Shown here: piece by piece, positions 1 to 44,938 of the stretch
Layout of the letters: each line of letters starts with the position of its first letter
Numbering within the stretch: position 1 is the stretch's first letter
Source of the DNA: Schmidtea polychroa
Lineage: Eukaryota
Assembly: GCA_044892525.1 (NCBI GenBank)
Contig: CM097888.1
Span: 89,838,001 to 89,902,000, forward strand
Reading direction: 5' to 3'
DNA: 64,000 nt
Notes under the pieces: generated by a model
Database searches by the model: none
What the model saw: the letters and a program-made list of their open reading frames with translations, nothing else
What the model was told of the DNA's origin: nothing
Translations under genes and position numbers: made by a program

Positions 1-2478
1 TATACCGAGCTTTTCAGTTAGCTGTTGAAATAACTGGGATTCAAACTGAGATCCCCTGTCTGTGATTATTGATTTCGGAACACCGTATCTAGAAATCCAA
101 TGTTGCAAAATTGAATTTGCTACAATTTCAGCAGAAATGTTTTTCAGAGGAATAACTTCAAACCAACGCGTTTTCCGGTCAATCATAGTTAATAAGTAAG
201 AAAAACCGCGATCAGAAGGCAAGGGGCCGACCAGGTCGATGTGAAGAATTTCGAACCTATTTCCGGTCGGATAGTGAATCATCTGTGGCTTAGTGTGTCT
301 AGTGATCTTGTGTTGTTGACAACCGATGCACTGACTCACCCACAATTTAATATCGTGCCTCATTGCTGGCCAAACCACATGTGAATGCAATAGGTTAAAG
401 GTAGCCGACAAGCCTGGATGATGTAAGTCGTGAATGGAGTGGAAAGCTAATTTCCGTAAGGAATCGTGCAAAATCGGTCTTAAAACACCTGATAAAGACG
501 AGTCAAAGTGTACTCCGTCCACGATTTCAAGTTTATCGCCAAAAGCAGCTAGATCTTTTGCCGAAGGTGGATTGTCGCGGAGGCACTGTACTGGAAATAT
601 CGGATCGTGCAATATAGCGTTGGTGCTGCGGGAAAGACAGTCTGCAATAACGTTTTCTTTGCCGGCAATGTGGCGTATTTCGCAAGAAAATTCTGAAATA
701 TAACTGATTTGCCTCTGTTGTCGTGGAGATGGGTCTTTCATTCCAAAAAGATAAGTTAGCGGTTTGTGGTCAGTGTAGATGACAAAAGGACGACCTTCAA
801 GCAAGTGCTTGAAATGTTTGATTGAAAGATATATGCCTAAGAGTTCTCGGTCGAAAGCCGAATATTTCCGTTGAGCGGAAGAAAGTTTCTTTGAGAAAAA
901 CTCTAAGGGTTCAGAAATGTCATTATGTAATTGGTGTAATACTGCACCAATAGCAACGTTTGATGCATCAGTGGTCAGACTCCAAGGTAAATCAGCATTG
1001 GGAAAATGGAGTGTTTGAATTTTCGAAAGTGCCGACTTAGCGTTTTCAAATGCACTGAGTGTGGTATCGCTCCATGACACTAAAGACTTTTTTGGTTTTG
1101 AGACGAGACCTGAAAGAGGTGACAAAATGTCAGAAACCCCTGGAATAAAACGATGACAATAGTTTATCGTTCCCAAAAAACTTCTCAGTTGTGAAACTGT
1201 TTTTGGAAGTGGGAATTTGGCTATGGTATCTAGTCTATCCGGAGGAGGTCGGATTCCATCTGCGGAAATTAAATGTCCCAGGAAACGAGTCTCGTGTTGG
1301 AAGAAGGTACACTTATCGACGTTTACCTTAAGGTTGTATTGCCGAAGTGCTGTTAAAGTTCTTGTTAGATGGGTTATATGCGTCTCTAAGTCAGGTGATC
1401 CGATTAAAATGTCGTCTATGTATGGAACTGCGAAAGGTAGGTCCATTAAGACTTGATCAATATACCTTTGAAAGGTCTGTGCAGAATTCCGAAGGCCAAA
1501 TGGCATATGCACGTACTCGAAAAGTCCGATCGGAGTTATTACGGCTGTTTTTTCTATGTCAGACTCTCGCACGGGTATCTGATGGTACGCCTTCACGAGG
1601 TCGATTGTGGAGAAAATCTTTGCCTTTGAAAGACGGTGAAGGATATCACTAACAAGCGGCATGCTATAGGAATCATGTACCGTAATAGCATTAAGGTTTC
1701 GATAGTCGCCACACGGACGGAAAGTGCCATCTTTTTTTGGGACCAGGTGCAATGGCGATGACCATGGAGATTTAGATCTCCGAATGGTACCCTCATGTAA
1801 GAGGTTAGTGAACTCGGAACGTACAAATTCGAGTTTTTCATTCGACAGTGGTCTAATTTTGCATCTAACTGGTAAAGATGAAGTTGTGTCGATCGTGTGG
1901 CAGTAAAGCGGCTTCGAAACGTCACTTATTGGCGTGTTAAAACACCTATTAATAATATCTACGGCTATTTTTGGGTGTTCGATTGTTATAACCGTTTTCG
2001 ACGGAGTAGTATTTATATCGTCCGTTCCTATCCGTTGTGGATCTTCAAAGATGTTTGAGGGAATAGTGCTGCAGTTTAATTGGTTATTTATCCTTAAAGT
2101 GCGTCCACGGCAATCGACGAGTAGTTCGTTAGCGCTTAAAAAATCAGATCCTAATATGGGGATAATAACCTCTGCTATATAAAATTTCCACTCAAATAAT
2201 TGGTCGGACAGAAATGGCAACGAGAAAGCAATTGTCTTTGAACCTAAAGTCTCAACAACACTACCGTTTGCGGCCTTCAAAGAAATATCGACAGTGTTGA
2301 GGTCTGGAAGGTACTCTTTAGGTAAGATCGACAAGCTGGAACCAGTGTCGACAAGGAATTTTAGTCTGTTGGAAGGAGACGACAATATATTAAAAGCGTT
2401 TGACTCTGCTTCTATTAAAAATAAATCTGATTTTGATGAAATTTTGCCTCCCACCTCTGCCGCTAGAAGTGGTGGCAT
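1..2478 (-). CDS. pol: pol polyprotein (protease, RT, RNase H, integrase), 3'-partial; predicted to be expressed by -1 frameshift from ORF1
   Basis: All motifs fall in one frame (codon starts divisible by 3): KFLVDTGSS (2341-2352), [10 protein letters not shown] (1411-1422), [13 protein letters not shown] (about 969), [16 protein letters not shown], integrase HHCC and [19 protein letters not shown]. Absent from the ORF track, consistent with no stop before the window edge; I spot-checked the frame, not every codon. Confidence 0.92.
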
Positions 2479-2490
2479 TATAAGTTTTTT
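2446..2490 (-). promoter_or_regulatory. -1 programmed ribosomal frameshift signal (gag-pol)
   Basis: Slippery heptamer A AAA AAC (2484-2490) in the gag frame, 7-nt spacer, then hairpin GCC-A-CCACTTCT/AGAGGTGG-GA-GGC (2446-2476). The -1 frame is the pol frame. Confidence 0.8.
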
Positions 2491-5219
2491 TGATTGTTTG
2501 CTTTAGGTTTTGTGTAATTGGAGCAGCCTTCGAAGCATTTTAAGGCTTTATCTCCAAACCTGTCGTGGTATATACACTTGTCAAGTATCTGACAGGATGG
2601 TGCTTTATCTCGCCAATTGCAACCTAAATGGCAGAACCGTGCCTTGTTACGAAACTTAAAATGGAAACGGCACAGGTTCCTGGTTGCAGGTGAAGGTGAA
2701 CGTTGACGAGTATTTTGCACCAAGTGTGATTTTTGGGCATATTGCCTGTCGTCATTTGTCCGCCTGCTGGACATGCTATTCTCAAGCTCGCTGATGCGTT
2801 TAGTGAGGCCTGTAATAGCGCAAAGTAAAGCTTCTTCGGTCGAAGGTTTTAAAGAAGAAGAAGGTAAAATTTCGGGGTTAGTGCTGCTACTTAACTGCAC
2901 AGAGCAAGTTGGTTGCGGACCAAGTGGCACGACTTCGTTAATCTTGTCGGCCATCTTTGCTAGCTCTACCACGTCTGCTGTTGACGAAAGCGCTAAAATT
3001 TGTTGTGCGTGTGGCGGTAAAGCAGACAGAAAAAATTGCCTCAAGAGTTTTTGATCCGCCGCAGCCTCCGGGTGTATTTGCGTTAGTTCCGCCATAGCGT
3101 GTTGCAAGAACTGTGATGGTTTTCTGCTGCCCAAAGTTTGCGTCTTGAAGTATTTAGTGAAGACGGCAGCTGTAGGTTCCTTAAAAATATCGAGGAATGC
3201 CGTACGCAATTCTTCATATGGGTTTTTTACGCTAGTAGGCGAAGTGCGAAGGATCACGGACGAAAGTTTACTTAATATCGTCGGCGGAATCAACGGCAAG
3301 ATGCGACAGTATTTGTCTCGTGAACTGGTTACCTCGATTCCCTCGAGTACTAGTTCGGTAGCTATCAGCCAAGTAATTGGAGAGTTATTCTCATCCAAAA
3401 AATATTGACATAAGTACGTTGATCGCTGGTTGTTGGACCTACGCTTATGTTTTGCCTGTTTGGGGTTGCTGCCTGAGTCATTCTCCGAATCGGAGGAACC
3501 GCCAGAAAGTGGCAACAAACAATGAATGACGCTGTATGGTGTCACTCCATAGTCGCCCAAGGTACGACTGTCGGAAAGGATGTTGCCGTTATACGACAAG
3601 AGAAAACGGCATTTGTGATTAGTCAATGTGCTGTAATTTTTAGAAAGACCTTTAATTGTAGTGTCTGTGTCAACTGAAACGGTTTGTGTCTTATTTGTTC
3701 CAGGGTTTTCTATTAATATTTGGAACTTTTTGGGCCCCGGTGCGGCGCTACCCTCTCGTGTGGGCTGATGCTTATTTAAATAATTTTTTATAATTTTATA
3801 TATGATATCAATAATAATATAAATCAATAATAATATAGTATAATTTAATAATAATATAATAATATAATTTAGAGGTAATCGATCTAAGGTACCTGGCGGT
3901 GCTGACACGGGCATTGCTTGATTGAGTCTCGATTCGCTGGGAGACGGTTTATTATCGTGAATAAATGGCTGTCCCGGTGCACGAGAGTTTAATGTGAAAA
4001 AATCATTATTCTGTTGCATTAAGAATTCATTTGGATTTGGTCGAAGCATGATGCGTTGTGGGGCTGTGTGTAAGACATCACTCGTTAGCAATTTGTTATT
4101 TGGTATATAATTATTGATCGGAGTCATTTTTTGACGATTTTCAACGGCAATCATCTCAGCCAATGCTTGCCGGGAAACATTAATCGAATCAAAATCTATA
4201 TCGGCTGTATCTTTATATTTCTGATCGTAATGTGAGTTCGGTTTCTCCGAGCCAAATATGCGATTTATATCCATTTCGTTTCGATACTGATACTGACCGT
4301 AGTTAAGCACACCGTTGTTGTTTGCCTGTTGATTGATGTTGTGATCGTATGACTGATTATTATTGTTGTTATTGTTGATTGCGGCGTGGTTTTGAGAATT
4401 TAACTGGTAGAAACTTTCCAGCAGAGAATTCGACGAACCAACTGAATTCAAACTGTTCATAAATGATTTCTGATCTGAAAGCCGTGACAGGGGAGATGTA
4501 GAATTCAGTGTACTGTGGAATTCAGTAATATCATTACCAGCTGAGCTATTGAAAGCACTGAATAGGGGAAATTCGGATTTAGTATCCGATGATTCAGATT
4601 GTAATTGAATACTTTTCTTGATAAATTTGAAAGACGATTTATTTATCGGGTCAGCAATTTGAAATTGACCATTTGGAATATGATTATTATCTGTGATATT
4701 TGCAGGGGTCGAAATGGAATCACCTAGAACGACTACGGGATCCAAAGAATCACGATCTGGAATTGTCTGAGTTAATTTGATATACTCTTCTCGATTCGAT
4801 GACAAAAAACAGGAATGAGCAATTATCAATTGATCTATCAGCCTATCAATATCATGGGATATAGGATTAAATTTTGATGAAAGTTTTAATTCAGAAAATA
4901 TTTTGGAAAGCATATGGAACATATGTTGACGTAATTCCGCTGTTCGTTTATGAGAAACTAACATAGATTGTATTTCCTGTAATCTGGATTTAGCAATGAT
5001 ATTAGATAAATAAGTTTCTAATTGTTCAAATCTTGAACATTGTTCTGGCACTTCTGACACCAATGTTGTGGTTGGCGTAGTCCTTTCTGGTAATTTGGCA
5101 ATCGCACGATGATAGGTTTCGCGAGTAATCCAAAATCTGGGATCAAGATTTTTTAGATTTTCTGTGTCTTCTTGAAAACTTCCGAGAATCATGAAAATTG
5201 ATTTAGAAAACGGGAACAT
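2478..5219 (-). CDS. gag: ORF1, 913 aa: about 500-aa unknown N-terminal extension, hydrophobic stretch, ubiquitin-like domain (aa 499-574) and CsRn1-type Gag with two CHCC knuckles
   Basis: Gag core (PITWL...DKYC...PYEELR...[10 protein letters not shown]...FLSALP...LAKMADKI); knuckles CRFH-x9-C-x3-C (2619-2672) and CIYH-x9-C-x3-C (2523-2576); Ubl at 3498-3725. The first ATG lies inside the LTR, so the true start may be further downstream. Confidence 0.88.
5049..5062 (-). promoter_or_regulatory. Primer-binding site complementary to the tRNA-Leu 3' end
   Basis: TGGTGTCAGAAGTG, one base after the LTR-terminal CA; matches the known tRNA-Leu PBS prefix TGGTGTCAGAAGTGGG over 14 nt. Confidence 0.85.
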
Positions 5220-6409
5220 GTCCGATTATACAATTTCAATAAGCTGTTATTAATACGATCAGGATAAGTATATTATTTCAAAATCAAAATCCAAATATAG
5301 CGATCAAGATTGAAAACGAATTATAATTCTCAAAAAACAACTACAATTGTAATATTTTAAAACACCCAGTTTATTCATTTAACTAAAACAAAAGAGATTT
5401 AAATCAATTGTGTATAAATTTTAGAAAAGTAATTAAAACTGGAACAACTGAATTGGCAGTAATTAATATAGAAATAATTTTCTAGGTAAGCAATCAAATG
5501 TAGGAAAGCGAAAATTATTACTAGAATTTCATGAAAGATTGCGGTATTAAAATGAAGTAAAATAAGAACAGACTAAATAACTGGTTTAGATTTATTAATT
5601 TCTTCTTTTATATCTAATTCATTGATAGGGAGCGACCAATAGTTGACATCGATATAATCCTCCAAAGCATAATCAATACCCAAATTTGCCGAGTATTGAT
5701 TGGAATTGAAAGAATTGGTCGGCGACATCGAAAAGATTTCCATAACTCGTTGACCACTTTTGACAGTATTCGTTTTTCAATGAACCTTCAGGATTGACAG
5801 TAAATATCCGTTTCGGATCTATTCCGACAGCTTGGTAAGCAATGACGTCGTTGATACTGTTACCGAAACCGGCATACAGAGGATGGACACAATCGGAAAA
5901 AAGTGATCGAACATCATTTAGACATCATTGGATTTTGAAATATTCCGGTTTCTTTTCAATGACTTCTCGATGCAATGATTGGAAAAGCGATGTTGGCGAA
6001 AGAAGAATCGGGTCTTCTGGAAGTTTATCGGAAAACTCCTGGACGATATCCTGGAGAAACGTTCGAGTAATTCCTGCTTGTCCGACAGCTCGTGCGGATA
6101 AATAAATGAATCGATAGTTGTTTTGAAAGATTTTGTTTTACAGTTTCACTACTCCAGCTTGCGTCCAATCACGGCCTGGTATTGGTAGAACATGGCATCG
6201 AATTTTCTTTACTCGTCTGAGATTGATCAATAGAGCCTGATTGATAAGTAGAAGTATTAGCTGATCGCACGAATTTTGATTGACTATAATTGTGCTCTGA
6301 TTGGTCCTTATTCGTTGGTGACCGCGCATTTATATATATAATATAATATAATATAATATAGTATAATAGGTATATAGATATTGTGAAGGCCGTGTAACGG
6401 CTCACTACA
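5064..6409 (-). repeat. 5' LTR, 1346 bp
   Basis: Termini TGTAGTG / CACAACA (6 of 7 inverted match), immediately followed by the PBS; TATATAAA (about 6329-6337), CCAAT motifs, and AATAAA at 5370-5375. The partner LTR is outside the window. Confidence 0.78.
5573..6197 (-). pseudogene. LPIN: Lipin (phosphatidate phosphatase, C-LIP/LNS2 domain) C-terminal fragment, intronless and disabled, located inside the LTR
   Basis: Translation: [39 protein letters not shown]...[37 protein letters not shown]...PLYAGFGNSINDVIAYQAVGIDPKRIFTVNPEG...DVADQFF/...DVNYWSLP. Stops at 6138-6140 and 5925-5927, one frameshift near 5710; the DxDxT catalytic motif is missing. Confidence 0.9.
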
Positions 6410-7094
6410 CTAACCACTTCGAAATAGAATTAGGAAAAACTGCTATTTACCAAATTTCAAATGTTAAAAATTTTGTTTCTAATAATAATAGATTACTGTT
6501 AATATATAAGTAGTATATCGATAAATAAAATGAAAGAAATTTAAGTCAATTTTAATTTAAATTCAACAATTACCACATAAAGATTTTTTGAAGGTATGAT
6601 AGACAAGAATTACCATTAATTTTGAACATCATTAATGTAGATTATTGTTAGATCGAAAAGTTTTATAAAGGTTTTATTGGGTAAATCTTGGACTAATTCG
6701 TTGAGATAAGGACAAACCAATCGACAATTTAGTCATCGCGTCTACTTTAAATGCACCGATTGACTTTCAAACATCACAAATGTCATGAAGGAATGTAACA
6801 AGTTTATCCTTTTTTCATTAACACCCCAAGTTTCGTAACATTCCTACTAATAAAGTTCACAAGAAATAATAGCATAAATTTTATAAATAGATTTTCAAAT
6901 CTGCTATTCTCAGAATTGTTTGGGTAGGCACATTTCCGGTAAACATCAGCAAGTTAAGAGGGGAAAAAATATTAGAACACTTCAAAGTTTAATATTTTTT
7001 AAATGCGTCCATCAAAGTTAATTTATAAAAATGCAACAGGAAGCGAAATTTTTCACAAAATATAAATATGAATCTTAACGCTAATTATTTCTTT

Positions 7095-7303
7095 NNNNNN
7101 NNNNNNNNNNNNNNNNNNNNNNNNNNNNNNNNNNNNNNNNNNNNNNNNNNNNNNNNNNNNNNNNNNNNNNNNNNNNNNNNNNNNNNNNNNNNNNNNNNNN
7201 NNNNNNNNNNNNNNNNNNNNNNNNNNNNNNNNNNNNNNNNNNNNNNNNNNNNNNNNNNNNNNNNNNNNNNNNNNNNNNNNNNNNNNNNNNNNNNNNNNNN
7301 NNN
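7095..7303. other. Assembly gap (209 N)
   Basis: Run of N. Confidence 1.
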
Positions 7304-9723: not shown

Positions 9724-10482
9724 TTAGAAAACGTCTCCTTCCGCGAATATTTCATCGATGTCTACCGGTAGGCGGTGGTCCGAGACGAATTTGATACCTT
9801 CGGCCGGTACCACTCGAAAAACTTCCTTGGAGGGAACAGTATGAGTGGAAGAGATTTCCTGGATCGTCGACTTCGCCGCCGATAGCGACGCTTCTAGGGC
9901 TGCCATCGCCTCTCTGCGCTTTTGGTTCTTTGCCGCTCGAGTTGGGCGTTTCCGTTTCCGGGATGGCTGATTAGCCTCCACTACCGGGGTATTGCCCGAG
10001 GCCACAAGAACTGGGGCCAGAATAGGATCAGACGAGCCGCCGGACATTGGAAGATAACCTGACAAGATTGGGGCTGGTACGGGTGGTAAATGAGAGCTAT
10101 GTCCTTGGCAACTCGTGGCAGATGGTCGGGATAACTGGTGGTGGAGTGGGAAAACGTTTGTCCCATCCACGACGGGAAATTCCCGTACCCGCTTGGCTAA
10201 TTCTGCCTCCGTATAGACCTTGTGGAGGGCTTCTGACTGGGCTTTGATTGTGAGCCGTTGGCAACGACTTTCCTCCAACAGGCTATCCCTGCAATGCTCT
10301 AGTCGCAGTATTTTACTACGCTCCTCCTTCATTTGTGGCGGGGAGAACCACGTACCTTCGTAAAGGTCAATTCTCTTTTTCAGTGCCCCGATGTAGAGTT
10401 GAAGCTGCGCGATGTCAGCATTTTTATCAGCGCAGGAAAGACAAGGGCGAAGAGCATTTCCAGATTGGATGGGTGTAGTCAT
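9724..10482 (-). CDS. Orphan intronless 252-aa ORF: CxxC, predicted coiled coil, Pro-rich linker with LPMSGGSSD, basic NLS-like stretch; probably belongs to a mobile element
   Basis: Long stop-free ORF, more GC-rich than its flanks; RPCLSC, heptad-like IAQLQLYIGALKKRI, SRKRKRPTRAAKNQKRR. No family recognised. Confidence 0.55.
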   Translation of the reverse strand: MTTPIQSGNALRPCLSCADKNADIAQLQLYIGALKKRIDLYEGTWFSPPQMKEERSKILRLEHCRDSLLEESRCQRLTIKAQSEALHKVYTEAELAKRVREFPVVDGTNVFPLHHQLSRPSATSCQGHSSHLPPVPAPILSGYLPMSGGSSDPILAPVLVASGNTPVVEANQPSRKRKRPTRAAKNQKRREAMAALEASLSAAKSTIQEISSTHTVPSKEVFRVVPAEGIKFVSDHRLPVDIDEIFAEGDVF

Positions 10483-13400
10483 TCTAGAATTTTAATCAAT
10501 AGTTTATGTTTATATCATTCCCTCATATTCACAATTATTTAGTTACAACACATTCAGACAAATTTTACTCAGTCTAGAGACTTTGAAAAGAAAACGGGGA
10601 AATGCTTGAAAATTAATTCATTTGGCCTAAAATCACCATTTAATTTAAGGTGGATGGTTCCCACCTATTACTCCCTTTTGATTATTAGTAATTATGAATT
10701 CTATATCTTTACTTTTCGAGAAAATAATAATTGAACAATCCAACTCTTAGCATCGTGGATAGTTGATTTGGGTATGCCCCCTGTTGTAGGGTTAGAAAAT
10801 CAGTAGCATTTATATTTATTTGGGTGGAATCAGTCCTGATGAATGAAAATATTGCGAACTATATTAATATATTTAAGAATTAAAATATAATATTTTCCAA
10901 AAACGCGCCATGCTCGTTGTCGTGGTGACACCTACGCGTGTGTGTTTGTATGTCGCGTTTCGTCTCTACGACGCGGCTTATCATGCTTACTGGATCAGTC
11001 TAGACTCTAGACTCATGCCCTTCAAGCAAATTCATCTATCCACTCTCTCGCCCTTACACACCGTTCTACTATACTGAGCAATTCCGATTACGCAATGATG
11101 ACGTCACAATGTAATTTAACATCCAGATTGATTATCATCCTACTGAGATGCATTCTATTTTAAGGCGTGATAATGTGTGAATTTCCGAGACACAGTCGAT
11201 TTAGATTTCTATTAGAAGTTTGATGAGTAACAACATTCTAGATGGTAGACGACCAATTCGGGGAATAATGGGTGAACTGGTGTTGGCAACCTAAGTTTTA
11301 TCGTGCGGACGACTCAAGATAATCACTCGTCAGTGCATCAAGTGAATAAGTCAGTACGGAAATTGGTATCTTATCATTCCTACCAGATTCCCGTCGGTCG
11401 TTTAATTCTATTAGCCACAGTCTGACTGAAATTCATTTATCAATTATCTGACAACCTCGACCGCGGCTTCCCAATGCAATTAACAATTTGCCGATAACAC
11501 TGTCAGTAGTTGCCCACATCTCTATCGTCGATAGTCAGATAATTGCTCATAATTTATTTACCTTATTTGCAGAAAACGGTACTTATCAGCAATCCGAATG
11601 TCAACAATCAAGGCTAAAAGTACATCCCCTATGGATTTCATCGCTAACGTGCTGGCGATCCAAATCAGACGATATCTTATGAATTTACTATGCTGCAGAA
11701 AAACAGTTGGATTTAATCGCAAACGGTGATCATCGAGATTCTTTCTTAGCTACTCTGATCGTCAGGCTGATTTTCCTGAAAGATTCTCCTCAATCTATGT
11801 GAAGTTTCGTTGGATCTAGCTAAATACTTATATCGATCTAATCCGGATTAACCTCTGTTGGTAATTCAAGCTTCCTATACGAATATCAGAAATCTCGATA
11901 CAAAAGAACGAAATGATAGAATATCCTCCTAACGATCGCGCTGAGTGAAGGCAAATTTTTACTCCGCAACTGGATTTTTCATCTACCGAGTCTCATCACC
12001 CCTCATGACACACCCAAGAAGGCATTCATTTCTGCCGCCATTCTTGCACCGTCATGAGGGACCAATCAACTCCTTTACATTCAAAAATTTAACGTTCGTA
12101 TATAAATATAATAATGATAGAATAAATGATGAGCAAAATAAACAAATCGAAATATCCGGCGACCATATCGTCTGGGCTCCAAGTATGATGCTTTTCCCTT
12201 TTTCGATCATATAGTCAATTTCAGCATTAGCAAACATCTTATTGATTATTATCACCTTCTCCAGTTCCAATATCTTCGCAACATCTCCTAGATGCGTGTC
12301 ATAAAAACTCCTCGTGGCTACTTCCTCCATTTGGCATCATACTTGAAATCACCAGGGGGTATAGTCGTCGGCACCATGAAGAAAGGCAGTTTTTATTTTC
12401 AAATAAATTTATTAAATGAAATTATTCTTATTATTTACAAAAAATTTATTAAAGTCAATCATAAATATCTATTAAATTCAATCATATAAAACTAATCCAT
12501 AAATAACTTAACATACTTCGAGGTTTGAAAAACTGGAGTTAATCGGTTAACGCGAAGGTTTTCGTGAGTAAGTTTACTGAGCTTCTTCCTAAAATCGATT
12601 TGGTTGTTTTTGAAATTAGTCCTTCGTAGTAGTTCGTAAGTCAAGTTCTGTAATCGTGAAAATTAAAGTGGTTCCTGAATGTCGTCCTGTAGAGTTTGGT
12701 TAAAAGTGGTGGTGAACAAATTAACAAATTTTACCTGTAGAGTTTGGTTAAAAGTGGTACTCTACTAATTTTTCGCGTTTCTTATATACTATTTTTCGTC
12801 CAATCAGGACTCAGTTAGGTTGTAATTTTTAATATTTATTATTATTTTATGTTTTTATTATAATATATTAGCTTTTAATAACTTAACTTATTTGTTATTA
12901 TTATTTTATTTATTTTCTTATTTTTCTTATTTTTCTCCTATTTTTTCTGCGGGTTCACTGCTACTTTATCGTAATACAATTTTTTGTTTTAAATAAACTT
13001 AAAGATATTTTTATTTTTTATTTATTGTTTTAATTTCTCGTTTATTTTCTCTCGCTTTTTTGCTTATTCTATTTCTACTTTATCTATTGTGCTTTAACTC
13101 ATATCTCTTATGTCCTATTTCTAATTCTTAAGGGTTTTATTTATTTATTACTTATTCTTATTTCTTTTTATGGGTATTTTATTGTTTCCTTATTTACTAT
13201 TGAGGTTTGATGGTAATTTATTTTTTATTATATTTCGTTTATTTTTTTGAGGTTCGTTTCCCGATTCAGCCCAGTTTTTCTCTACTTCAAAATTTAGCCC
13301 AACAAATAAATGAAAATATCATATTTATCTTTTAGATTTTTTTTAATTCAATAATTTTCATATTAATATTTGTAAGACATTAATTCAAAATAATATAATA

Positions 13401-14820: not shown

Positions 14821-15178
14821 AAATCGCCATTCGTACATCTTTTTCACTCTATGTTTCGATAGCATCACAATCATCATCATCAGGATACCTACATTTACAT
14901 CGGATTTAGTTATGTTAAATAATTAAAAAAAATAATTAAAATAATATTTTTTAAATAATTTTTAAAAGTTTAAATATAATTGATTATTGAAAATTATTTT
15001 TAAAAAAATAATTGTTTAAAAATTTTTATTTATAATTTAAAATTTATAGATTTTATAATTTATTTATATATTATCAATATAATATAGTTATTCATCCCTG
15101 GTGAATGTAGGTAACCTGATGATGATGATTGTGATGCTATCGAAATATATAGTGAAAAAGATGTACGAATGGCGATTT
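14821..15178. repeat. Inverted repeat (about 77-bp arms, AT-rich spacer) made of two head-to-head hammerhead-like motifs; Penelope pLTR-like
   Basis: 14821-14897 is the near reverse complement of 15102-15178. The plus arm reads CTGATGA-T-GAT...ATC-GAAA-TATATA-GTG (15116-15154); the minus arm has a degenerate cleavage site. Confidence 0.75.
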
Positions 15179-21350: not shown

Positions 21351-22360
21351 GTCAGGTTAATAATTATTTATCATGCCAGCTTTAACCTGTGAAAAAATCA
21401 ATTAATATACAAACAGAATTTATAAAAGCAGTTGTCATGAGAATGTTGATTTACAACTTGGTTATACCCATATACACCAAACACCACTGAGATACGTTCT
21501 CTATAGTGGTGGTTGGCGTGTAAAGCTATTCACTCACCAATATTCATTACAACTAGAGATCAGATTATTTTTTACTACAGATTTGTTATCGCATTGTTAG
21601 ATTTTGTTTTTTCCTATACTTCTTGATAACCTTTTGTTGTATAACCCCTATTCTTCTTATTATGAATAGTTATGAATATTCAAATTTATTTAAAATCGAT
21701 ATCGGGCATTATACAATTATACATATTTTTTGATTAATTTTTTTTTATCTTGGGTTTTTCCAACATTGTTTGAGCACATCCATTAAAAATGTGTTTAAAT
21801 TACTTGCCAACCCTTACGGACGCTCATGTTTGTTAACCAATCTTAGATTAATTATTATAATAAATTAATTTCTTCATAGTGACTGTTTTTGTCGATCTTG
21901 GTTCACCTTTTCTTGTTTATAATAAATCATTTTATAAATTGATTTTCTAAAGATGTGGCGCAAAGTACACGCTGGAAATGCCTAGAGCTTTCCGTATTCG
22001 ACTCAATGAACACATTAAATACAAAATCAGCAATTACTGTCAACAATGAGAAATAGAACATAAAATGGCCTCATACATTTACAAGACTAAATTCCAATGA
22101 AATTCCCTTACAAAGCTAGCGATAAAATTGCGATTTTTTCTTTTCATTTCAAGCCTCCGCAATTTCTGATGAATTATTATTTTAATTTTGATGATCTTGC
22201 ATAGGGTACCTATTTGGATGAACTTAGCAACTGTTATTGCATGAAATTTCTATGAATAAATTTAATTTATTTTTCATTTTCAGATGTGTTAAAGCTTGGT
22301 CAGACCAAGTACTACATCTCACTCCCATTGTATGACCCCTCTAACACCATATAGCCTATT

Positions 22361-23989
22361 ATGAATCAAACCTTAAATTCAGGATTAGTTGATTCACCAA
22401 TGTCGTTTTTTGAAACCTCCGTTATTCTATTCTTTTCAATAATTTTGAGCATCGTAACTATTGGAGGAAATTTGTTAGTGTTGTGTTCCTTTTATTTGGA
22501 GCCTGGTTTGAGGGTCTCGTCCAATTACTTCATTGCTTCTTTGGCAGTTACAGACTTATTAATTGGATTGTTTTCGATGAACCTTTATACCGTCTATATC
22601 GTTCTTAAATCGTGGCCACTAAGTCAACTCATGTGTGATTTGTGGCTGTCAATGGACTATACGGCCTGCCTGACCTCCCAATATACGGTATTCCTGATTA
22701 CAGTTGACCGATTTTGCTCCATCAAGATGCCAATGCGATACAATAAATGGAGAAGTGATCGGATTATATTTTTCATGATATTTTTAACGTGGTTCATTCC
22801 GTCTGTTATGTTCTATTCAATTATAATGAGTTGGCCTTACGTTGTTGGCCGGCAAAGAGGTACAAATGAATGCTATGCAGAATTCTCAATTAAACCTGTC
22901 TTTATTACTATTCTTACAGTCTGTTACTTTTGGATAACTCTCGTCGTTATGATCGGGCTTTACATTGGAATATATCAAGTTGCTCTGACTCTCCAAAGAA
23001 GATCTGACGCAAGAAAAGCAAAAGTTAATAAATATTTTCTTCTATCTTTGACAAATCGGCAAACGAATCAAATAATCAAAAATGAGAAAGAAATTGGGTC
23101 GGATTCGAGCAAGGATGATGAAATTGATACAAGTTCATGCAAAACTAATGACTACGACTCGGAGAGTTTGAGGCATTCTCATTCAAGCTGCTTCATTTTA
23201 TACTCGGGCCAACTTCCAAATATCGAATCCCCTCTTTTATGTGAAGATAATCCCAAACACTCTAGAAACAATTCTCCAGTTTATCAGTGCAATAATTTCC
23301 TTAGCCGAACAATTTCATTCCAAACTCAGGTGAAGTATGGATCTGAGGAGATTCATCATCATTGTCATTGTAACATTCATCACAACAACTCGACCTTATT
23401 TTGTCTTCATCACAACAATTGTACCAAAATACCTGGTTACCAATTCATTGACGTGGAAAACCTCAAGTCTTCATTTAACATAAATTTAACGGACCTTGAA
23501 AATTCAGGAAAAACTCTAAAACTTTGCTCCTCACCGATTTGGAAGCAGCAGCATCCAGTGGAATCGAATTGCAAAAATGACACCAAATATCTCTCCAATG
23601 AAATAGATGATAAAGCAACCTCTTTTACTTTGAAGTCGCCATTGCAAAAGGTTGCGAAAAAGTTCTATGGAGCTCTGCAGAAAACGAAAGGGGTGCAAAG
23701 TACGATTACTCAAAATCGAAATCGTGCTAAAAAAGCTCTGAAAACGATCAGTTTTATTTTGGGAGCTTTTATAATTTGCTGGACCCCTTTTCATGTGGTC
23801 ATCCTTATCAAGGCTGCTTGTGATGATCACTCTTTGAACCGTTCATGCATGAATGAGCACATTTATCGTCTTGCTTATTGGTTGTGCTATATTAACAGTC
23901 CTATCAATCCATTTTGCTATGCTTTGGCAAACACTCAAATTAAAGAAGCATTTTTTAGAATTCTTTCTTGTAAAAAGCACCAAAGATAA
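22361..23989 (+). CDS. Muscarinic acetylcholine receptor, invertebrate type-B / GAR-1/GAR-2-like class A GPCR (542 aa, single coding exon)
   Basis: 7TM signatures: GNLLV, NYFIASLAVTDL, CDLWLSMDYTACLTSQYTVFLITVDRFCS (D3.32; type-B-like TM3), long ICL3, KALKTISFILGAFIICWTPFHV, YWLCYINSPINPFCYALAN. In-frame TAG just upstream of the ATG; splice acceptor TTTCAG at 22283 (5'UTR intron). Confidence 0.9.
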   Translation: MNQTLNSGLVDSPMSFFETSVILFFSIILSIVTIGGNLLVLCSFYLEPGLRVSSNYFIASLAVTDLLIGLFSMNLYTVYIVLKSWPLSQLMCDLWLSMDYTACLTSQYTVFLITVDRFCSIKMPMRYNKWRSDRIIFFMIFLTWFIPSVMFYSIIMSWPYVVGRQRGTNECYAEFSIKPVFITILTVCYFWITLVVMIGLYIGIYQVALTLQRRSDARKAKVNKYFLLSLTNRQTNQIIKNEKEIGSDSSKDDEIDTSSCKTNDYDSESLRHSHSSCFILYSGQLPNIESPLLCEDNPKHSRNNSPVYQCNNFLSRTISFQTQVKYGSEEIHHHCHCNIHHNNSTLFCLHHNNCTKIPGYQFIDVENLKSSFNINLTDLENSGKTLKLCSSPIWKQQHPVESNCKNDTKYLSNEIDDKATSFTLKSPLQKVAKKFYGALQKTKGVQSTITQNRNRAKKALKTISFILGAFIICWTPFHVVILIKAACDDHSLNRSCMNEHIYRLAYWLCYINSPINPFCYALANTQIKEAFFRILSCKKHQR

Positions 23990-28306: not shown

Positions 28307-28533
28307 AATTATAAGAAAGCGCAAATCAAACATTCTTTTCACGATATATTTCGATAGTTTTCCTGTCATCATCAGGTGGGATATAATAACTCATTAAATT
28401 AAGGATTTTAAACAAATTTATTAATTATATAAAATCCTTAATTTCCATAGTTATTATATCCCACCTGATGATGACAGGAAAACTGTCAAAATATATCGTG
28501 AAAAGAATGTTTGATTTGCGCTTTCTTATAATT
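28307..28533. repeat. Head-to-head inverted pair of Penelope pLTR ends (foldback of about 227 bp)
   Basis: 28307-28390 is the near-perfect reverse complement of 28449-28533; the arm sequence is nearly identical to the 3' end of the Penelope element (60975-61038). Confidence 0.85.
28340..28378 (-). ncRNA. Minimal type I hammerhead ribozyme (one stem II mismatch)
   Basis: CAC-CTGATGA-T-GACAG-GAAAA-CTATC-GAAA-TATATC-GTG. The plus-strand partner at 28462-28500 has GAAA changed to AAAA. Confidence 0.7.
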
Positions 28534-29479
28534 TTAATTATTACTTAAATTTACCCTATTTTTAAAATTATTACCTTAATTTCTCACAAGTCATTGATTC
28601 TTCAAAATAGTTTACCATAGATTCGAATATAAAAATGTTGGAATCAATAAAAACAAAATAAAATCAAAACCTTTTACAAAAAATCCCTGAGACCTAAAAA
28701 ATACTTGTGATTTTTTAACGAGAGGCTAAATCTAGTACAAGAAATCCTTGGACCTAAAATACCTGTATACTATGGTATGATATTCACATAACCATGATAG
28801 GCCACATGAGCGCAGGCTTTTTAACAAGATCTTAATTCTAGTTCATTTTTACCTGAAAAATATTTAGTCAAAAAACCCATTGGTCCTCTACAGCAGTGCC
28901 GAAAGGGAGGTTGCAGTAGAGGGCCAATATCTACCTAATAATGCATAATAACCCTTTCCACTCACATTAATTTTCCCAAATGTGTTTCTTCAACTTATAT
29001 ATAATTTAGAGAATTTTGTGGAATTTCAAGAACCTATGTGAGAATTTGTAATGATATGGTCCACCTATCTCAGGAATTACAAGCCGTGGGGAGTGGTAGA
29101 AACAGTTTTCAAGAATGTGGCAAACAAATGGAAATGGTTAAAATGTTAGAAATTTGTGAGCAAATACTTTGTGAAAATATTAATTCTACTACGTAAGATT
29201 ATCAGAAAGAATTTTTCTGTTGAGCTTAATTTCATTTGAGGAGTTAAAATATTTTCCTAATAAATAATGTAAATAGTGTTTTGTGTTTGGTGCTTTCATT
29301 TTTAATTTACAAATATTTTTGTTAATATCGATTGATGTAAAATGCAACTTTTTAAACTTTTAATATTTTGCAGGAAACTAGATGAAAATATAAATAGCAA
29401 AGATTTTCAATTATAAAGATGCAAAATCTACACATCTTTAAAATGAAATTCGCAAAAGTATGTGGCCTCCTCACATTGC

Positions 29480-32400
29480 AATCGACACGTCACTTACTTG
29501 TAGTGAAACCAACAAAAACAAGTCCCTTACTAGATTAGAGGTCAAGTTCGAAGTATTTTTCTATCAACGTTTCACACCTTCGTAATTATTATGATAAAAG
29601 AAACTCCTTGGGAGACACTACATGTTAGTAATGTGAATCAGAAACAGGTTGGGATTAACAAGTAATGGAGCACCAACGGTCTCGCACGGGCCGTAGTTTG
29701 ACCACCCTTACATTATAAGAGTAAGTTTAAAAATGAAGGTTAATTCAGAGAATGCTCAACCTTTACGTTTGCCAAAATTTGTCAACATAGAATTTAATGT
29801 CAAATAAAAAACAGCCATTTCCTAAGCGTTTCAAAGATTTCCTCTCTAATTAATGAATATTAGTATAAAAAAATATTTTATTATATAAAATTTGTTTGTT
29901 TAAATAATCAAATTCAAAACGCCAATTTTTCACAATTTTCATCGACGATGAAAACAAGTTTGGGGAGACCTGTAAATTGTGCAATTCTAGACACAGACCT
30001 TTATAGGTTCCATTGACTGATATCTTTCTTCACAGCGCAATGAACGGTGATACGTTGACCAACACTATAAGGCTTTGGAAATTTTGATCGTTTTCAATAC
30101 AACCTTCAGAGATTATCCTCGATTATTTGTTTACATGATGTGGTGAAACCTTTACTTACTGATAACTTGCAACAGGTTGAGATTATATAGAAATTCACGA
30201 TGTAAAATGAACGAACTGACTGCTATAGCTATCCGCTTACAGTACCATTTGGAAAGTATGTGATGGAGACATCCGTCATGTCACTGCATTTGCAATTTTT
30301 GATGACGATTATAACCATTTTGGCCCTCGACGTTTTCAAATTTGTAATAAAATTTAATTAACATTATTTATTCATTCATAATTCAATAGATGAATATTAA
30401 ATTGTGAAAGCATTTTTGTGTTTTTAATATTAGATTAGCAAATGTCCACTTAGGTTCGCAGCTATAATACTTTGTGAAATGATCTTTTCTGTCATAATAT
30501 CTTCTGAATCTGGTGTAGACTACCTAGTTTCTCCACTATTCCAGGATAATCTTTCAATAAGATCCTCACCTGGAAGCCCATATTTACGAGAGCTTAATTG
30601 TAACCATGGTAATTATATTCTAATGACTGGTTTTTATAAGCTCAAGGGCCACATGAGAAACAATATGAAGTTATTTTCTGTGTTTCTATTGTTAAATATT
30701 CTTCTTATTTTAACCAAGATGAAACTTTTCTATGAAGAATGGCTCCAGTAAATGTCATGCTGCCCTGGTTCCAAAAAATGATTTCAATATTAAGAGTAAC
30801 CAAAAGTACCTCTAACTACAATGAAAAATACTCTTTTCTATCTTTCTGAAATTAAAAAAATCAATATAAAACAAAATCAATATAAAACAACAAAGATAAA
30901 GCACTATCAAATTTATTAGTTAATAAAAGTTATAAAATAAATGGAAATATAGAAAGATATAAAAAGTATGCAAAATATACGCGAGTTGCAATAATAGGAT
31001 TAATCCAATGGAGGCCTCTCAAACACCATTGACAACGTATCCACCAAGGGTGTCAGACTGGATGTCAAGCTGCCATCTATTCTATCAAGAGTTATCCTAG
31101 CTCCATCGACTCCAATAACACTCTGCAAATACATTTCCAAATGCTGTGAATTCCATTTCTCTAGACGATCCGACATAATCGATATTGGGTTTCCTCGTGG
31201 ATTCCCCACAATTTCTATGTTTGAGCTGCCAGTTCCTTTATTATCAACTATTTCAATCACGATCGATTTCAAAAGCTCCTCTGATGGACGGAGCTCTTCC
31301 ACTTTATAAATTGAATCAAAGTTTGATTGGCTCCAGACAATCAATTGTGCCAACTGATCTCGAATCTCTTTTATTAAACTATTTTTCTCGATCAGACTCA
31401 TTTCACCAAGAAAATCTTTCAACATCTTTTCGTTAACAATGATTGAGACTGGACTCGAGATTTCCTCACAAAGGATACCAGCCAACACAGCAGTAATTGC
31501 ATTCATTGTAAATAGAGGAAATTGCAAACTTTCAACCGATGCAAATCTGTAAAAAGTGAAAATCGGAAAATAGAGGTTTCCTTAACTTGATAATCTCGCA
31601 ATCATCGAGATACCCTTCAAAAGGAATGTGGACGTTAAAATCAATCATTTGTGAAATTGCTGTTAGGATCACGCCAAATTAATATTCAATTAAAATAATT
31701 TCATGAGCAAACAACAATAAATAAATAGATAGGATATCAAATTGAATATTGCAACTTTGTAAATAACCAAAGTAAAATGAAAATCATTAACAAATGCAAG
31801 AAGTATTACAAGAAATAAATGCAAACATTATAAATATGAATAACGCAATAAAAGCAAATTCAAAATAATAAGAAATTACGAATACAAAATAAAAGATTTA
31901 ATCGAAAAAATAAGTGAAAATTCCCTCCAAAAATGATTAAAATTAAATCAAGAAATAACTCGAATAAAAATTATTTCAATTGTTTTAATGAATCAATGTA
32001 TCCACTCCAAATTCAAATATTTTTCCAAGTTTTTATGTCCAATTGGCCAATTCGTACTTAATTGATAATTGTACTTTATTATTGTTATAAGGTAATTGCA
32101 TTTCTGTTTATGTTATCTATGCTTTTTATTTTGTTTTAATCTATCATTGTATATTTTGTGTGTAAGAGCTAGTTTGTCTAAATAATCAATTTATCTTAGA
32201 TCGATATTTCGAATTTTCTATTGTTTTTCGAATCCGGCAGCGTAATTCCAGTTCAGGATCGATGACTCAACCAAGGTTATAAACCATAGAACCAGAAAGT
32301 GGTAGATCAAGATACAGGCGATGAACAACAACGTAAAGTTTCTCGATATCGATCACGCTTCATGATATCCCATGAAGTACAACGCGTGACTGACTCAATT

Positions 32401-34292: not shown

Positions 34293-35285
34293 TTATCTTT
34301 CTGAAATTAAAATATCAATAAATAGTAAAATCAATATAAAACAAAATCAATATAAAACAAAATCAATATAAAACAACAAAGATAAAGCACTATCAAATTT
34401 ATTAGTTAATAAAAGTTATAAAATAAATGGAAATATAGAAAGATATAAAAAGTATGCAAAATATACGCGAGTTGCAATAATAGGATTAATCCAATGGAGG
34501 CCTCTCAAACACCATTGACAACGTATCCACCAAGGGTGTCAGACTGGATGTCAAGCTGCCATCTATTCTATCAAGAGTTATCCTAGCTCCATCGACTCCA
34601 ATAACACTCTGCAAATACATTTCCAAATGCTGTGAATTCCATTTCTCTAGACGATCCGACATAATCGATATTGGGTTTCCTCGTGGATTCCCCACAATTT
34701 CTATGTTTGAGCTGCCAGTTCCTTTATTATCAACTATTTCAATCACGATCGATTTCAAAAGCTCCTCTGATGGACGGAGCTCTTCCACTTTATAAATTGA
34801 ATCAAAGTTTGATTGGCTCCAGACAATCAATTGTGCCAACTGATCTCGAATCTCTTTTATTAAACTATTTTTCTCGATCAGACTCATTTCACCGAGAAAA
34901 TCTTTCAACATCTTTTCGTTAACAATGATTGAGACTGGACTCGAGATTTCCTCACAAAGGATACCAGCCAACACAGCAGTAATTGCATTCATTGTAAATA
35001 GAGGAAATTGCAAACTTTCAACCGATGCAAATCTGTAAAAAGTGAAAATCGGAAAATAGAGGTTTCCTTAACTTGATAATCTCGCAATCATCGAGATACC
35101 CTTCAAAAGGAATGTGGACGTTTAAATCAATCATTTGTGAAATTGCTGTTAGGATCACGCCAAATTAATATTCAATTAAAATAATTTCATGAGCAAACAA
35201 CAATAACCAAAGTAAAATGAAAATCATTAACAAATGCAAGAAGTATTACAAGAAATAAATGCAAACATTATAAATATGAATAACA
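34293..35285. repeat. Partial third copy of the duplicated block (carries the 175-aa ORF)
   Basis: Matches about 30838-31850 with a deletion of about 60 bp; abuts the start of the exon array. Confidence 0.9.
34486..35013 (-). CDS. Orphan 175-aa ORF, copy 2 (protein identical to copy 1)
   Basis: Identical translation in the ORF track. Confidence 0.5.
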   Translation of the reverse strand: MQFPLFTMNAITAVLAGILCEEISSPVSIIVNEKMLKDFLGEMSLIEKNSLIKEIRDQLAQLIVWSQSNFDSIYKVEELRPSEELLKSIVIEIVDNKGTGSSNIEIVGNPRGNPISIMSDRLEKWNSQHLEMYLQSVIGVDGARITLDRIDGSLTSSLTPLVDTLSMVFERPPLD

Positions 35286-38200
35286 AAATAAATGCAGCAC
35301 CAAGTTGTTCACCCGCCAGTGGTGGTGAATGTCCAGTGGATGAGTGAGTGAATGTCCCGCCAGTGGATGAGGGAGTGAATGGCCGACCAGTGGATGAGGG
35401 AGTGAATGGCGGTCATCAACCACCAGCAGCACCAGGTGGTATTGAAGCGGTGCTGCAAGGTATTTTTTTTTATATATAATATTTTTAATAATTTTTTTAG
35501 TGCATCCTGTACAAGTTGTTCACCCGCCAGTGGATGAGGGAGTGAATGTCCCGCGAGGTGGATGAGGGAGTGAAATTAATTTTTTTAGTTCATCCTGTAC
35601 AAGTTCACTCGCCAGTGGTGGTGGCTGTCGGCCAGAAGCACCAGGTAGGAGCTTCTTGGTGTATTATACAGTGATAATGTGTTTACGCCTCAGACACATC
35701 ATAAGAATTTCTTTGTAATTAATCGCATCACACGCTTTATTTGTGCAAAACCATTTAACGTGTCCAATAACTTGAGATTGAGCCATGATTGAATTGGAAA
35801 CATTGGATAATTGTTCAACACTTTGGCTTGTAAACATTTGAATTGTGTTAATCCTTGTAAGAGCTCGATTAAATAGAATATCATATTCATAAGTTAGCAA
35901 GTTTATCTTTTTATCGCTAATTAAATCATTGATTTCCAATCGTTTTGATAAACTTTGAAAAATTGAATTAATGTAAATTAGAAATTTTGAAATATAAACG
36001 AATTCATAAAAATCTTGATTATCTATGACATTTACATTACTTCCATTAATAATTTCAACGATCTTGTTGAGTCATGGACGAGTTTCACTGCTGAAAAGAC
36101 ATCTCTTCGCTATATTGCTCATTGAAATACGACATATCAAACATTCATTATCTTCCATATTTCACTAAGGCCGAAAATTCAAAACTGAATTACCAAAATT
36201 ATAAATCATTTATAAATTACAAATCATTTTCAAAATCGATCGAATTTCAAAAACACAAAAAAATCTGACTCGATCAAAACTCAACTCATAATAATCACAA
36301 TTGTCCGCGTCTGTGTGCGCACACAAAAGACTCCAAAAACCAGTACAAAGCGCACACAGGCGCGAGAACCGATAATCAACTCACAAAAAACGGCACTAAT
36401 CGCGTCTGTGTGCGCACACAAACCCAATCTCAAATGTAAACAGAGAACGCACACAAACGCGACAAACTAGTAATTAACCATAATGAATATGTTCAAAAGA
36501 GCAACCATTGCTGATTTATAACCCATCATACTTAAAGCCCCATCAGTAGAAATTCCAGACAACAAATTAATATTTATTCTATTTTCATCAACTGAACTAC
36601 ATAGGGCTTCAAAAATGTGTCAATTCCTCTTGTGGTTCCCTTTAAACTTTCAAGTCATAAGAACATAAATAAGACATAAATAAGACATAAATCGCAGGAT
36701 TAATCGATATTAATATTATAATTATTTTAATTTTTAGCAATACAACAGCAAATGCAAGCAATGCAAATAATGGAAATAAATTGTATTAATTGCTGCAACC
36801 AGCCTGGGGGCATAGATTGTGAGATAGATCACTCCGCTTTGATTAATAAATTTCACTGTTAATAAAAGTTCACTGTCACATTTGCTCCAGGATTGAACGT
36901 GCCTCCGCGCCGGCGCGGCACATTAAAAGGAGTATATTTTATTTTAGATGAAAGGATTAATCGATTAATGGAAAATAATTGCATAAGTTGTTGCAATCAG
37001 CCTGGGGCAAACAATTGTCCCAATGACCATTGTCAATTGATTAAGTACATTGTCACATTTGCTCCAGGATTGTACGTGCCTCCAGGCTGGCGCGGCACAT
37101 TAAAAGGAGTAATTTATTTTTTTATTATATATATTTTATTTAATTTTTTTAGTGCATCATTCCCGCCAGGGGTGGTGCCTACCCCGACAAGTGAGCATAA
37201 CACGACAGGGGAGGATAACCCGACAGGGGAGGATAACCCGACAGGGGAGGATAACCCGACAGAGGAGCATAACCCGACAGGGGAGCATAACCCGACAGGG
37301 GAGGATAACCCGACAGGGGAGGATAACCCGACAGGGGAGGATAACCCGACAGGGGAGCTTAACCCGACAGGGGAGGATAACCCGACAGGGGAGGATAACC
37401 CGACAGGGGAAGATAACGAAAGGATTATTCGATTAATGGAAAATAATTGCATAAGTTGTTGCAATCAGCCTGGGGCAAACAATTAAAAGGAGTAATTTAT
37501 TTTTTTATTATATATAATATTTTAATTAATTTTTTTAGTGCATCGTGCCCCGCCAGGGGTGGTGCCTACCCCGACTGTAAAGATTTTATTGTTAAACCAA
37601 GTAAATTGGTCAACTAAACCCTGGATAATTAACAGAAAATTAAAAAGACATTACTCTAAAAGTAAACCATAAATTAATTTAATGCATTCATCACATCCTA
37701 ATATTAAATCCATTAAATCCTCATTAAATCCAACCGACTATATCCCCCTTAAAAATCATATATTCTACCTTAACCGATCACTCATTAAATCATACCGACT
37801 ATATCCCTTGAGGTTATATTCAATCCTCTTAAAATCCTTAGAGAATTCTTCAAAAATATGAATTTTCTTTAACTTACAGACACCATAATTAATAATTCAA
37901 ATGGGTGAAAACAAGCGGTAGAACTATTCATTAATGGATTATGGGAGGTAAATACTGAGAAGTGGCTTAGATAAGATGGAGATGTATTAATTGAATTTAT
38001 TTAAATTATTTCATAAAAATTATCACTTTAATGAAAGTATTTTAAAAAGAAATATTTTTGTGAGGAGGATATAAGTGAAAATAATTAGTTGAATATAAGT
38101 GATTAAATAATAATTAGTGGAATATAGAAAATCGGGGGAATATAAGTGAGAAGGATTTTCTATAAGCTTCGGCATTGTTTATCATCATGGATTTTGTTGT

Positions 38201-44426: not shown

Positions 44427-44938
44427 ATGAATTGCAATTGCCAAATGTCAGCTCAAATTAATGAAGCAATCGAAAGCAATTGCTTGATTTGCTGTCACGA
44501 ACCTGCTGTTGGACCGTGTCAAACAGATCATCTTGGGATGATCAAAAAAATTAATCATTCCAAGGTGCATTGCACACAGTGCACCAGGATTGTACGTGCC
44601 TCCGGGCTGGCGCGGCACATTAAAAGGAGTAATTTATTTTTTTATTATATATATTTTATTTAATTTTTTTAGTGCATCATTCCCGCCAGGGGTGGTGCCT
44701 ACCCCGACAAGTGAGCATAACACGACAGGGGAGGATAACCCGACAGGGGAGGATAACCCGACAGGGGAGGATAACCCGACAGGGGAGGATAACCCGACAG
44801 AGGAGCATAACCCGACAGGGGAGCATAACCCGACAGGGGAGGATAACCCGACAGGGGAGCTTAACCCGACAGGGGAGGATAACCCGACAGGGGAGGATAA
44901 CCCGACAGGGGAAGATAACGAAAGGATTATTCGATTAA
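44427..44938 (+). CDS. Spliced model join(44427-44628,44673-44938), 155 aa: Zn module followed by a basic (ITRQGR/S)n tail
   Basis: ATG directly after a TTTTAG acceptor; canonical 44-nt GT-AG intron; splicing completes the C2H2 finger (HIKR-M-H). Confidence 0.5.

Follow-up and report, generated by a model that had tools for sequence, protein, structure and literature searches.

At the left end of a 64,000-nucleotide stretch of the genome of the planarian Schmidtea polychroa (GenBank assembly GCA_044892525.1, contig CM097888.1, positions 89,838,001 to 89,902,000 of the forward strand; hereafter the window, with positions counted from its first letter) lies a Ty3/Gypsy retrotransposon, encoded on the minus strand and running past the window's edge at base 1. 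Some 510 bp upstream of its primer-binding site (PBS), and on the same strand as its gag and pol genes, sits a decayed copy of the 3′ end of the coding sequence of the host gene lipin. Here we describe the element and the lipin piece, together with the evidence that the piece is borne within the element's long terminal repeat (LTR), which we think probable. The background GC content is 28–30%.

The pol open reading frame (ORF; 2502–1, minus strand) is open for 834 codons up to the edge of the window and encodes, in this order, a DTG protease motif, reverse transcriptase (RT), RNase H and integrase; among solved relatives, Ty3 Gag-Pol matches best (E 9e-101). Upstream of it, a gag-like ORF of 915 open codons (5225–2478, minus strand) overlaps pol where A AAA AAC (2490), a candidate site for -1 frameshifting, is followed by a hairpin and may provide entry into pol. 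The first ~500 amino acids (aa) of the gag-like product were assigned to no family, and the N-terminal 260 aa matched nothing in Pfam or in the protein atlas searched. This leader is followed by a ubiquitin-like domain, DUF7041 (for which the atlas leads to the gag core all scored under 0.9) and two CX2HX9CX3C knuckles (aa 852 and 884 of P0001).

The 3′ end of the 5′ LTR is marked by an ordered set of signals spanning 5070–5049: CACAACA (ending at 5064), which fits the consensus YNYAACA with 0 mismatches, then one T, then a 14-nt PBS (5062–5049, minus strand) that is complementary to the 3′ end of tRNA-Leu(CAA) and occurs only once in the window. This arrangement, which a preliminary description of the sequence had proposed and which we confirm, fixes the end of the LTR at 5064. 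The same 14 nt match the start of a published tRNA-Leu(CAA) probe (PMC7997516), and 12 nt match the PBS of Steamer (PMC8905726). With gag preceding protease, RT, RNase H and integrase, and a tRNA-type PBS directly after an LTR that ends in CA, the element has the organization of Ty3/Gypsy. Within this group, the CsRN1 clade is defined by the CX2HX9CX3C gag signature, a tRNA-Trp PBS and a 4-bp target-site duplication (TSD) (PMC2582038). Our element resembles CsRn1, PwRn1 and AgCR in its knuckle, its order of pol domains, its -1 type of frameshift and its flatworm host, but differs from them in carrying two knuckles, a PBS of the tRNA-Leu type (as in Steamer), a long N-terminal extension with a ubiquitin-like domain and an LTR possibly four times longer (PMC2582038). 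Since its knuckle is of the CsRN1 type while its primer is not tRNA-Trp, we call the element CsRN1-like and do not file it as a member of the clade.

Several observations concern the gag-like ORF in its own right. The ubiquitin-like domain (3700–3490, minus strand; P0001 aa 510–579, Pfam E 3.7e-9; its aa 510–571 are followed by LSGG) ends in LPLSGG ahead of the gag core, an end that could serve as a host-deubiquitinase cleavage site freeing Gag from the 500-aa leader; the domain may itself have been taken from the host by the element family, as a second and older event. A 255-codon ORF without a Pfam match elsewhere in the window (9724–10491, minus strand, in a region of 40% GC) contains the motif LPMSGGSSD, which resembles the LPLSGGSSD at the end of the gag domain (blastp E 0.01), and may represent the leader of another element or a chance resemblance. 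The gag-like frame itself opens inside the putative U5 region of the LTR (at 5225, within 5225–5064), has its first ATG at 5219 and continues through the PBS, with 53 open codons ahead of the PBS (p about 0.03). An AT-rich block at 3870–3775 (minus strand) is in frame within gag, where it encodes a hydrophobic run of Ile, Leu and Tyr, and shows weak low-complexity similarity to the TATA block of the LTR described below. We rejected the possibility that this block is an intron, as the nearest acceptors give lengths of 122 or 128 nt, which are not multiples of 3.

The lipin piece occupies 6194–5573 on the minus strand (622 bp). A profile search placed a Pfam LNS2 match at 6197–5677 (E 7e-57), and tblastn with P0005, a full-length flatworm lipin of 734 aa, aligned aa 530–734 to this segment (E 3e-107), colinearly and without any intron-sized gap. 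The piece begins seven residues past DVDGT, the DxDxT catalytic motif of the protein (P0005 aa 518–522), and includes the natural stop codon (5575–5573). No further part of lipin was found in the window by tblastn with P0005, and N-LIP is absent from it. The three codons immediately upstream (6203–6195) are each one base away from the host residue, which does not by itself prove homology, and an extension of the homology as far as the DxDxT motif was rejected, with the codons for aa 520–526 being one or two bases off throughout.

Compared with P0005, 190 of 203 codons are identical and the 13 that changed are each a single base from the host codon, so that the piece carries 13 substitutions and two indels over about 620 bp. 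Its reading frame is broken three times: by a nonsense codon at 6140–6138, by an extra in-frame stop codon at 5927–5925 (a 3-nt insertion relative to P0005) and by a one-base frameshift within 5687–5681. The preliminary description had reported a sense-oriented lipin C-LIP coding piece of about 625 bp, running from just past the catalytic motif to the natural stop, and our searches agree with it on each of these points. It had also counted two nonsense changes and one frameshift; all three breaks are present, while the second stop turns out to be an inserted codon and not a substitution. Other lipins conserve the residues that the breaks affect, and the piece can therefore not be the exon of the host gene. 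Lacking N-LIP and the DxDxT motif, and with its frame broken three times, it does not have the make-up of a working lipin (Mg-dependent phosphatidate phosphatase). It is a real, decayed pseudogene fragment of the LNS2/C-LIP region, and it is dead as lipin.

A homologue search with the piece returned 3390 longer proteins at E 1e-20, and the best 120 of these were examined. Among these 120, P0005 was 94% identical, P0006 82%, and all others at most 59%, with trematode lipins foremost. A phylogenetic analysis of 28 rows, comprising the piece and 27 of the 120 matches (named rows from across the taxa together with P0005 and P0006), placed the piece as sister to P0005 (support 97/85), with a terminal branch of 0.046 against 0 for P0005. 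The trio formed with P0006 was in turn sister to the trematodes (96/93). On this evidence the host is a flatworm, and the background GC content makes a planarian likely.

Whether the lipin piece belongs to the element turns on where the LTR begins. The preliminary description had drawn a 1346-bp LTR from 6409 to 5064, of which the 3′ end stands, while the start is a candidate, given that the window contains a single LTR. The sequence TGTAGTG (6409–6403, minus strand) is the only one of 22 candidates starting with TG in 5070–7094 to differ at no more than one position from the LTR's own 3′ end. It likewise has one mismatch each to the terminal motif of CsRN1 (TGTGGYG) and to the general motif TGTTRNR (PMC3601003), and 6409 is the only site in 5070–7094 that fits both terminal motifs. 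Reading from 6409, the parts follow in the order published for such LTRs (PMC3601003): a terminal motif, an AT-rich TATA block, AATAAA, a GT-rich tract and a CA end. The AT-rich block, a predicted core promoter (6379–6329, minus strand), is 8% GC and has matches to TATAWAW at 6340, 6338, 6336 and 6334, making its end at 6340–6329 TATA-like. We would expect 0.13 sites in which the joint terminal motif is followed by a TATA sequence within 120 nt, a criterion that was chosen post hoc.

Composition provides a second line of evidence. The 134 bp of non-lipin DNA between the AT-rich block and the lipin piece (6328–6195, minus strand; the putative end of U3 or start of R) outscore all but 0.6–4.8% of 1356 host windows in element-like composition and lie near the median of element windows, and the DNA beyond the LTR (6410–7094) is host-like; the 134 bp have no homology to lipin by tblastn and no protein relative. 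On the other side of the lipin piece, a T-rich segment (5572–5376, minus strand; 24% GC, 48% T) without a poly(A) run could be either lipin 3′ untranslated region or native LTR. It is followed by AATAAA at 5375–5370, where the preliminary description had placed a possible poly(A) signal, then by CA (5349–5348), by a GT-rich tract (5345–5331) and by the putative U5 (5345–5064), which ends in CACAACA. A second AATAAA lies inside the lipin coding part (5596–5591). A GT-rich tract past AATAAA is normally lost from a processed mRNA. Given the tract behind it, the chance that the AATAAA at 5375 belongs to the LTR itself is no lower than that of its coming from lipin. Folding of the putative R/U5 region was unremarkable (z 0.21), and a tRNA scan and a search of Rfam at gathering score found no tRNA and no match, respectively. 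If the LTR does start at 6409, the adjoining TTAG (6413–6410, minus strand) is a candidate 4-bp target site, of the length reported for CsRn1-like elements (PMC2582038). A start at 6409 is thus favoured by the order of the parts and in part by their composition, each signal being weak.

The element and the lipin piece differ in how far they have decayed. The divergence of the lipin piece comes to about 2.8–3.0% if all 13 changes are counted; since P0005 may derive from a close relative and not from the same genome, we also give a conservative estimate of 1.7–1.8%, based on only the 8 changes at which P0005 and P0006 agree. In contrast, gag and pol run for 5.2 kb without an extra frameshift and have no stop in 1747 codons, where 5.3–6.7 stops would be expected had they drifted unselected at the full rate (P 0.001–0.005) and 3.3–4.1 at the conservative rate (P 0.016–0.038). 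The chance of all the breaks landing in the lipin piece is 0.011 for two breaks and 0.001 for three. The lipin piece has therefore drifted for longer than the ORFs of this copy, which argues against its insertion after the element had integrated. This bears directly on the idea of a one-off insertion of lipin cDNA into the 5′ LTR of this copy, with the 3′ LTR and the rest of the family lacking it. Such an event would account for the LTR-like order of the parts around the piece and for the lack of a second copy in the protein sets searched, but the piece would then be younger than gag-pol, yet it carries 13 substitutions and two indels next to a clean 5.2 kb (P 0.001–0.04); we regard it as very unlikely. 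Two readings agree with the mismatch in age: either the LTR has carried the piece over cycles of replication, or an older retrocopy lies beside a young insertion.

A number of results weigh against carriage in the LTR. The terminal motif at 6409 is at the level expected by chance (2.55 single-motif sites expected; 0.55 joint, P 0.42); the best change-point in composition is 6328 and not 6409; and the whole of 6195–6409 is less distinctive, with 5–19% of host windows scoring as high, while 5226–5572 is host-like. TATA boxes are poorly conserved in the LTRs of animal Gypsy elements, and the LTRs of CsRN1 average 330 bp, which would suit a short LTR (PMC3601003). A self-comparison of 4900–7094 with the window yielded short low-complexity matches and no second LTR or lipin copy, and no TSD or family copy was seen in the window or in the protein sets. 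Exact look-ups of window proteins in these sets found none present (0/6 and 0/8), and no sibling emerged from the 51 of 71 near-length candidates that passed (best identity 62%). As pseudogenes are rarely annotated in protein sets, the missing siblings say little. The peptide spanning the junction (6329–6141) had no genuine relative among 1.84 billion representatives; two matches, both of about 31% to repeat proteins, were rejected. A test of site conservation for neutral decay of the lipin changes was not significant (Fisher p 0.32, 0.34), and the age mismatch is explained equally well by an older adjacent retrocopy. Moreover, transcription starting near 6305 would place 13 ATGs ahead of the first ATG in the gag frame, a burden for an autonomous element.

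Taken together, such points lend some weight to a scenario in which an older lipin retrocopy (a processed pseudogene of the type made by long interspersed nuclear elements (LINEs), or an LTR-mediated relic) later received at its 3′ end the insertion of a young element whose LTR is short, so that lipin is mere flank and does not spread. The LTR could then start at 5570 (TGTTCTT), 5390 (TGTTTTA) or 5345 (TGTAGTT), each with two mismatches to the LTR 3′ end, and would measure 507, 327 or 282 bp, respectively, a typical length given the mean of 330 bp (PMC3601003) and the 381 bp of PwRn1 (PMC2582038). The 5′-truncated form of the piece, which reaches the stop codon, is also as expected of a retrocopy. 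Against this, the scenario demands, as we infer, that the element happened to insert no more than about 230 bp from a retrocopy on the same strand. None of the three short LTRs has a TATA sequence and the 282-bp form also lacks AATAAA, and the element-like 6195–6328 and the better terminal motif at 6409 are left unexplained. Nor are the poly(A) tail and flanking TSD of a LINE-type processed pseudogene found here: neither a poly(A) run nor a convincing duplication borders the piece, and decay or the later insertion could have removed both. On balance we consider this scenario rather unlikely; were it true, neither the pseudogene nor the insertion next to it would be out of the ordinary.

An artefact of assembly was also considered, in which a collapsed or mis-joined repeat brought a lipin pseudogene next to the LTR. 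There are three gaps of N in the window, one of them (7095–7303) 685 bp from the candidate start of the LTR, and near-identical tandem repeats occur elsewhere in it. However, 1–7094 is free of gaps, the breaks at conserved lipin residues set the piece apart from the host's own exon, and the LTR-like order of parts would not be expected from a mis-join, leaving a chimera only a slim prospect.

The reading we favour, with a little more than even confidence, is that a template switch captured the 3′ end of a lipin mRNA into the LTR of this CsRN1-like element, which has since carried it as a neutral passenger. Lipin mRNA would have been packaged together with the element's RNA, and during minus-strand synthesis or the first strand transfer RT would have switched onto its 3′ part, copied the last 205 lipin codons and returned to the element's RNA. 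It is established that a single RNA is the source from which the two LTRs are regenerated (PMC13317346); a captured lipin segment would for this reason become part of the LTR, leaving gag-pol untouched and the element autonomous. The piece would then have been inherited through cycles of replication with the TATA block on one side of it and the poly(A) signal on the other, probably in R, and as an unselected passenger it would decay while gag-pol stayed open. Transcription starting near 6305 would place it in R, and a start further downstream would place it in U3.

The form of the piece, which is isolated, in sense orientation, truncated at its 5′ end and inclusive of the stop, is consistent with capture by template switching, which in animals yields partial mRNA copies that lack poly(A) and undergo further rounds of copying (PMC5131818). 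As in LTR-mediated retrocopies, what we find is a partial and presumably mRNA-derived copy (aa 530–734) with no poly(A) tail and no TSD of its own, and no run of at least five A's occurs from the lipin stop to 5155. In contrast to such retrocopies, the internal ORFs have not been replaced, the piece lying upstream of the PBS with gag and the visible pol open. The longest word shared by its two flanks is an 8-mer (6208 and 5483), of which chance alone would give about one by a rough reckoning. Capture by splicing was rejected, as the 5′ junction lacks an AG acceptor. The same junction speaks against a DNA-level capture of the genomic last exon by repair or conversion, in which the piece would still be LTR-borne: the intronless 620 bp could be a single exon, but the junction does not coincide with an AG acceptor, the flanks give no sign of an intron, and sense orientation with a stop suits the 3′ end of an mRNA, so that we find this route hardly credible. 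An ORF fusing LTR and lipin (ATG at 6329, 45 open codons, p 0.04) was rejected as well, with its ATG abutting the TATA block, its frame stopping at 6140 and no relative found. Most likely the lipin piece has no function, and a role in small RNAs is speculation. The preliminary description's proposal of host-gene transduction into the LTR thus fares best in its core, transduction linked to the element being the best reading and the age mismatch telling strongly against a one-off insertion, while location of the piece in both LTRs and its spread with the family are things we infer.

The remainder of the window contains several further features. An intronless rhodopsin-family G-protein-coupled receptor of 544 codons is encoded at 22355–23989 (plus strand; 7tm_1 E 1.6e-48), which we take from the look of its sequence to be muscarinic-like. 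An array of units of about 2.8 kb, 94–99% identical and with internal repeats of 18, 27 and 267 bp and intron-like AT segments, extends from 36700 to 49500 and ends at a FLYWCH ORF (48732–49508). Three repeat copies that are 98–99.5% identical (29472–31925, 34336–35206 and 57458–59885) carry a 193-codon ORF without a Pfam match. A decayed RT fragment at 59975–60493 (plus strand; Pfam RVT_1 E 2e-4) contains the motif GVAMGSPLAP, presumably Penelope-like. AT-rich inverted repeats at 14821–15178 and 28307–28533 (arms of 85 and 109 nt, 92–93%) are possibly miniature inverted-repeat transposable elements.

Set beside known systems, the process suggested here resembles LTR-mediated retroposition as described by Tan et al. 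2016 (PMC5131818), in which a partial mRNA without poly(A), usually in sense orientation, is joined to an LTR element and copied again. In 15 of 15 fly cases reported there, however, the retrocopy replaced part of an internal ORF and the element was non-autonomous, whereas here the PBS lies downstream of the piece and gag-pol, as far as the window shows it, is open; what is suggested to be new is the LTR position combined with a coding-intact element. The Cassandra, Helenus and Ajax TRIMs (miniature retrotransposons with terminal repeats; Kojima 2024, PMC10886601) match the favoured reading in having host-derived sequence in both LTRs that spreads with the element, but that sequence is an RNA polymerase III promoter from 5S rRNA or tRNA and the elements are non-autonomous, while ours is a coding element with a decayed coding piece of no known benefit. 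Nor does it have the small-RNA-derived LTR sequence and non-coding body of TRIMp3, there being no tRNA or Rfam match and gag-pol being encoded. In BARE-2 of barley, abnormal template switching likewise placed foreign sequence in the LTR of a subgroup, but the donor was the retrotransposon Wis-2 and not a host gene (PMC13317346).

Other elements are alike in what they have captured. Partial copies of host mRNA are linked to LTR elements in Pxyfem of Plutella xylostella (PMC9674220), where the copies are flanked by gag fragments, and in the gene-capturing Sireviruses of maize (bioRxiv 10.1101/777037); in both, small RNAs acting on the donor gene were measured, in Plutella with silencing of that gene, and the speculative small-RNA role of the lipin piece is modelled on them. 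Gene fragments are common in the LTR elements of plants and have been counted in 425 such elements of maize (PMC2774510), from 672 rice and 1343 sorghum genes (PMC3726574) and in 204 of 6200 Sireviruses (10.1101/777037), and the accessible portions of these reports do not state a position in the LTR proper. Burro/GYPSM1 of Schmidtea (PMC6431247) is also a planarian Gypsy element with host-like domains in ORF1, including a Ubi2/SUMO-like motif, but it exceeds 30 kb, has CCHC gag knuckles and one huge ORF, and the accessible part of its description mentions no lipin or LTR-located capture. The literature covered, which is incomplete, gave us no account of an LTR carrying lipin, nor of an autonomous animal Gypsy element whose LTR holds a piece of mRNA; the supplements of PMC5131818 and PMC2774510 may place captures in LTRs.

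Known LTR-mediated retrocopies of animals replace internal ORFs and thereby cripple the element. With capture into the LTR, the element would stay autonomous, each insertion would bring a double dose of the captured sequence, and the sequence would survive in solo LTRs, which would make it an efficient route for spreading fragments of host genes. With more copies in hand, the lipin piece would serve as a neutral, dated record of how the family has replicated, and it would cleanly test where errors in strand transfer arise. Planarian PIWI proteins degrade transposons and mRNAs according to complementarity with PIWI-interacting RNAs (piRNAs) (PMC6824462), and in planarians piRNAs are also made from the transcripts of pseudogenes and from those that are poorly translated (PMC10954484); given this biology, a lipin segment of roughly 97% identity in a transposon transcript offers a direct test of cross-silencing between transposable elements and genes. 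A bolder and, in our view, distinctly improbable extension is that an autonomous flatworm Gypsy family carries the lipin 3′ end in the R region of both LTRs, scatters lipin DNA through the genome (solo LTRs included) and so couples lipin mRNA to the stem-cell piRNA pathway. In that event, piRNAs directed against the element would also cut lipin mRNA, making silencing costly, or the host-like segment would shield the element. If true, it would amount to gene capture in an animal at the level of a family, located in the LTR and regulatory in effect.

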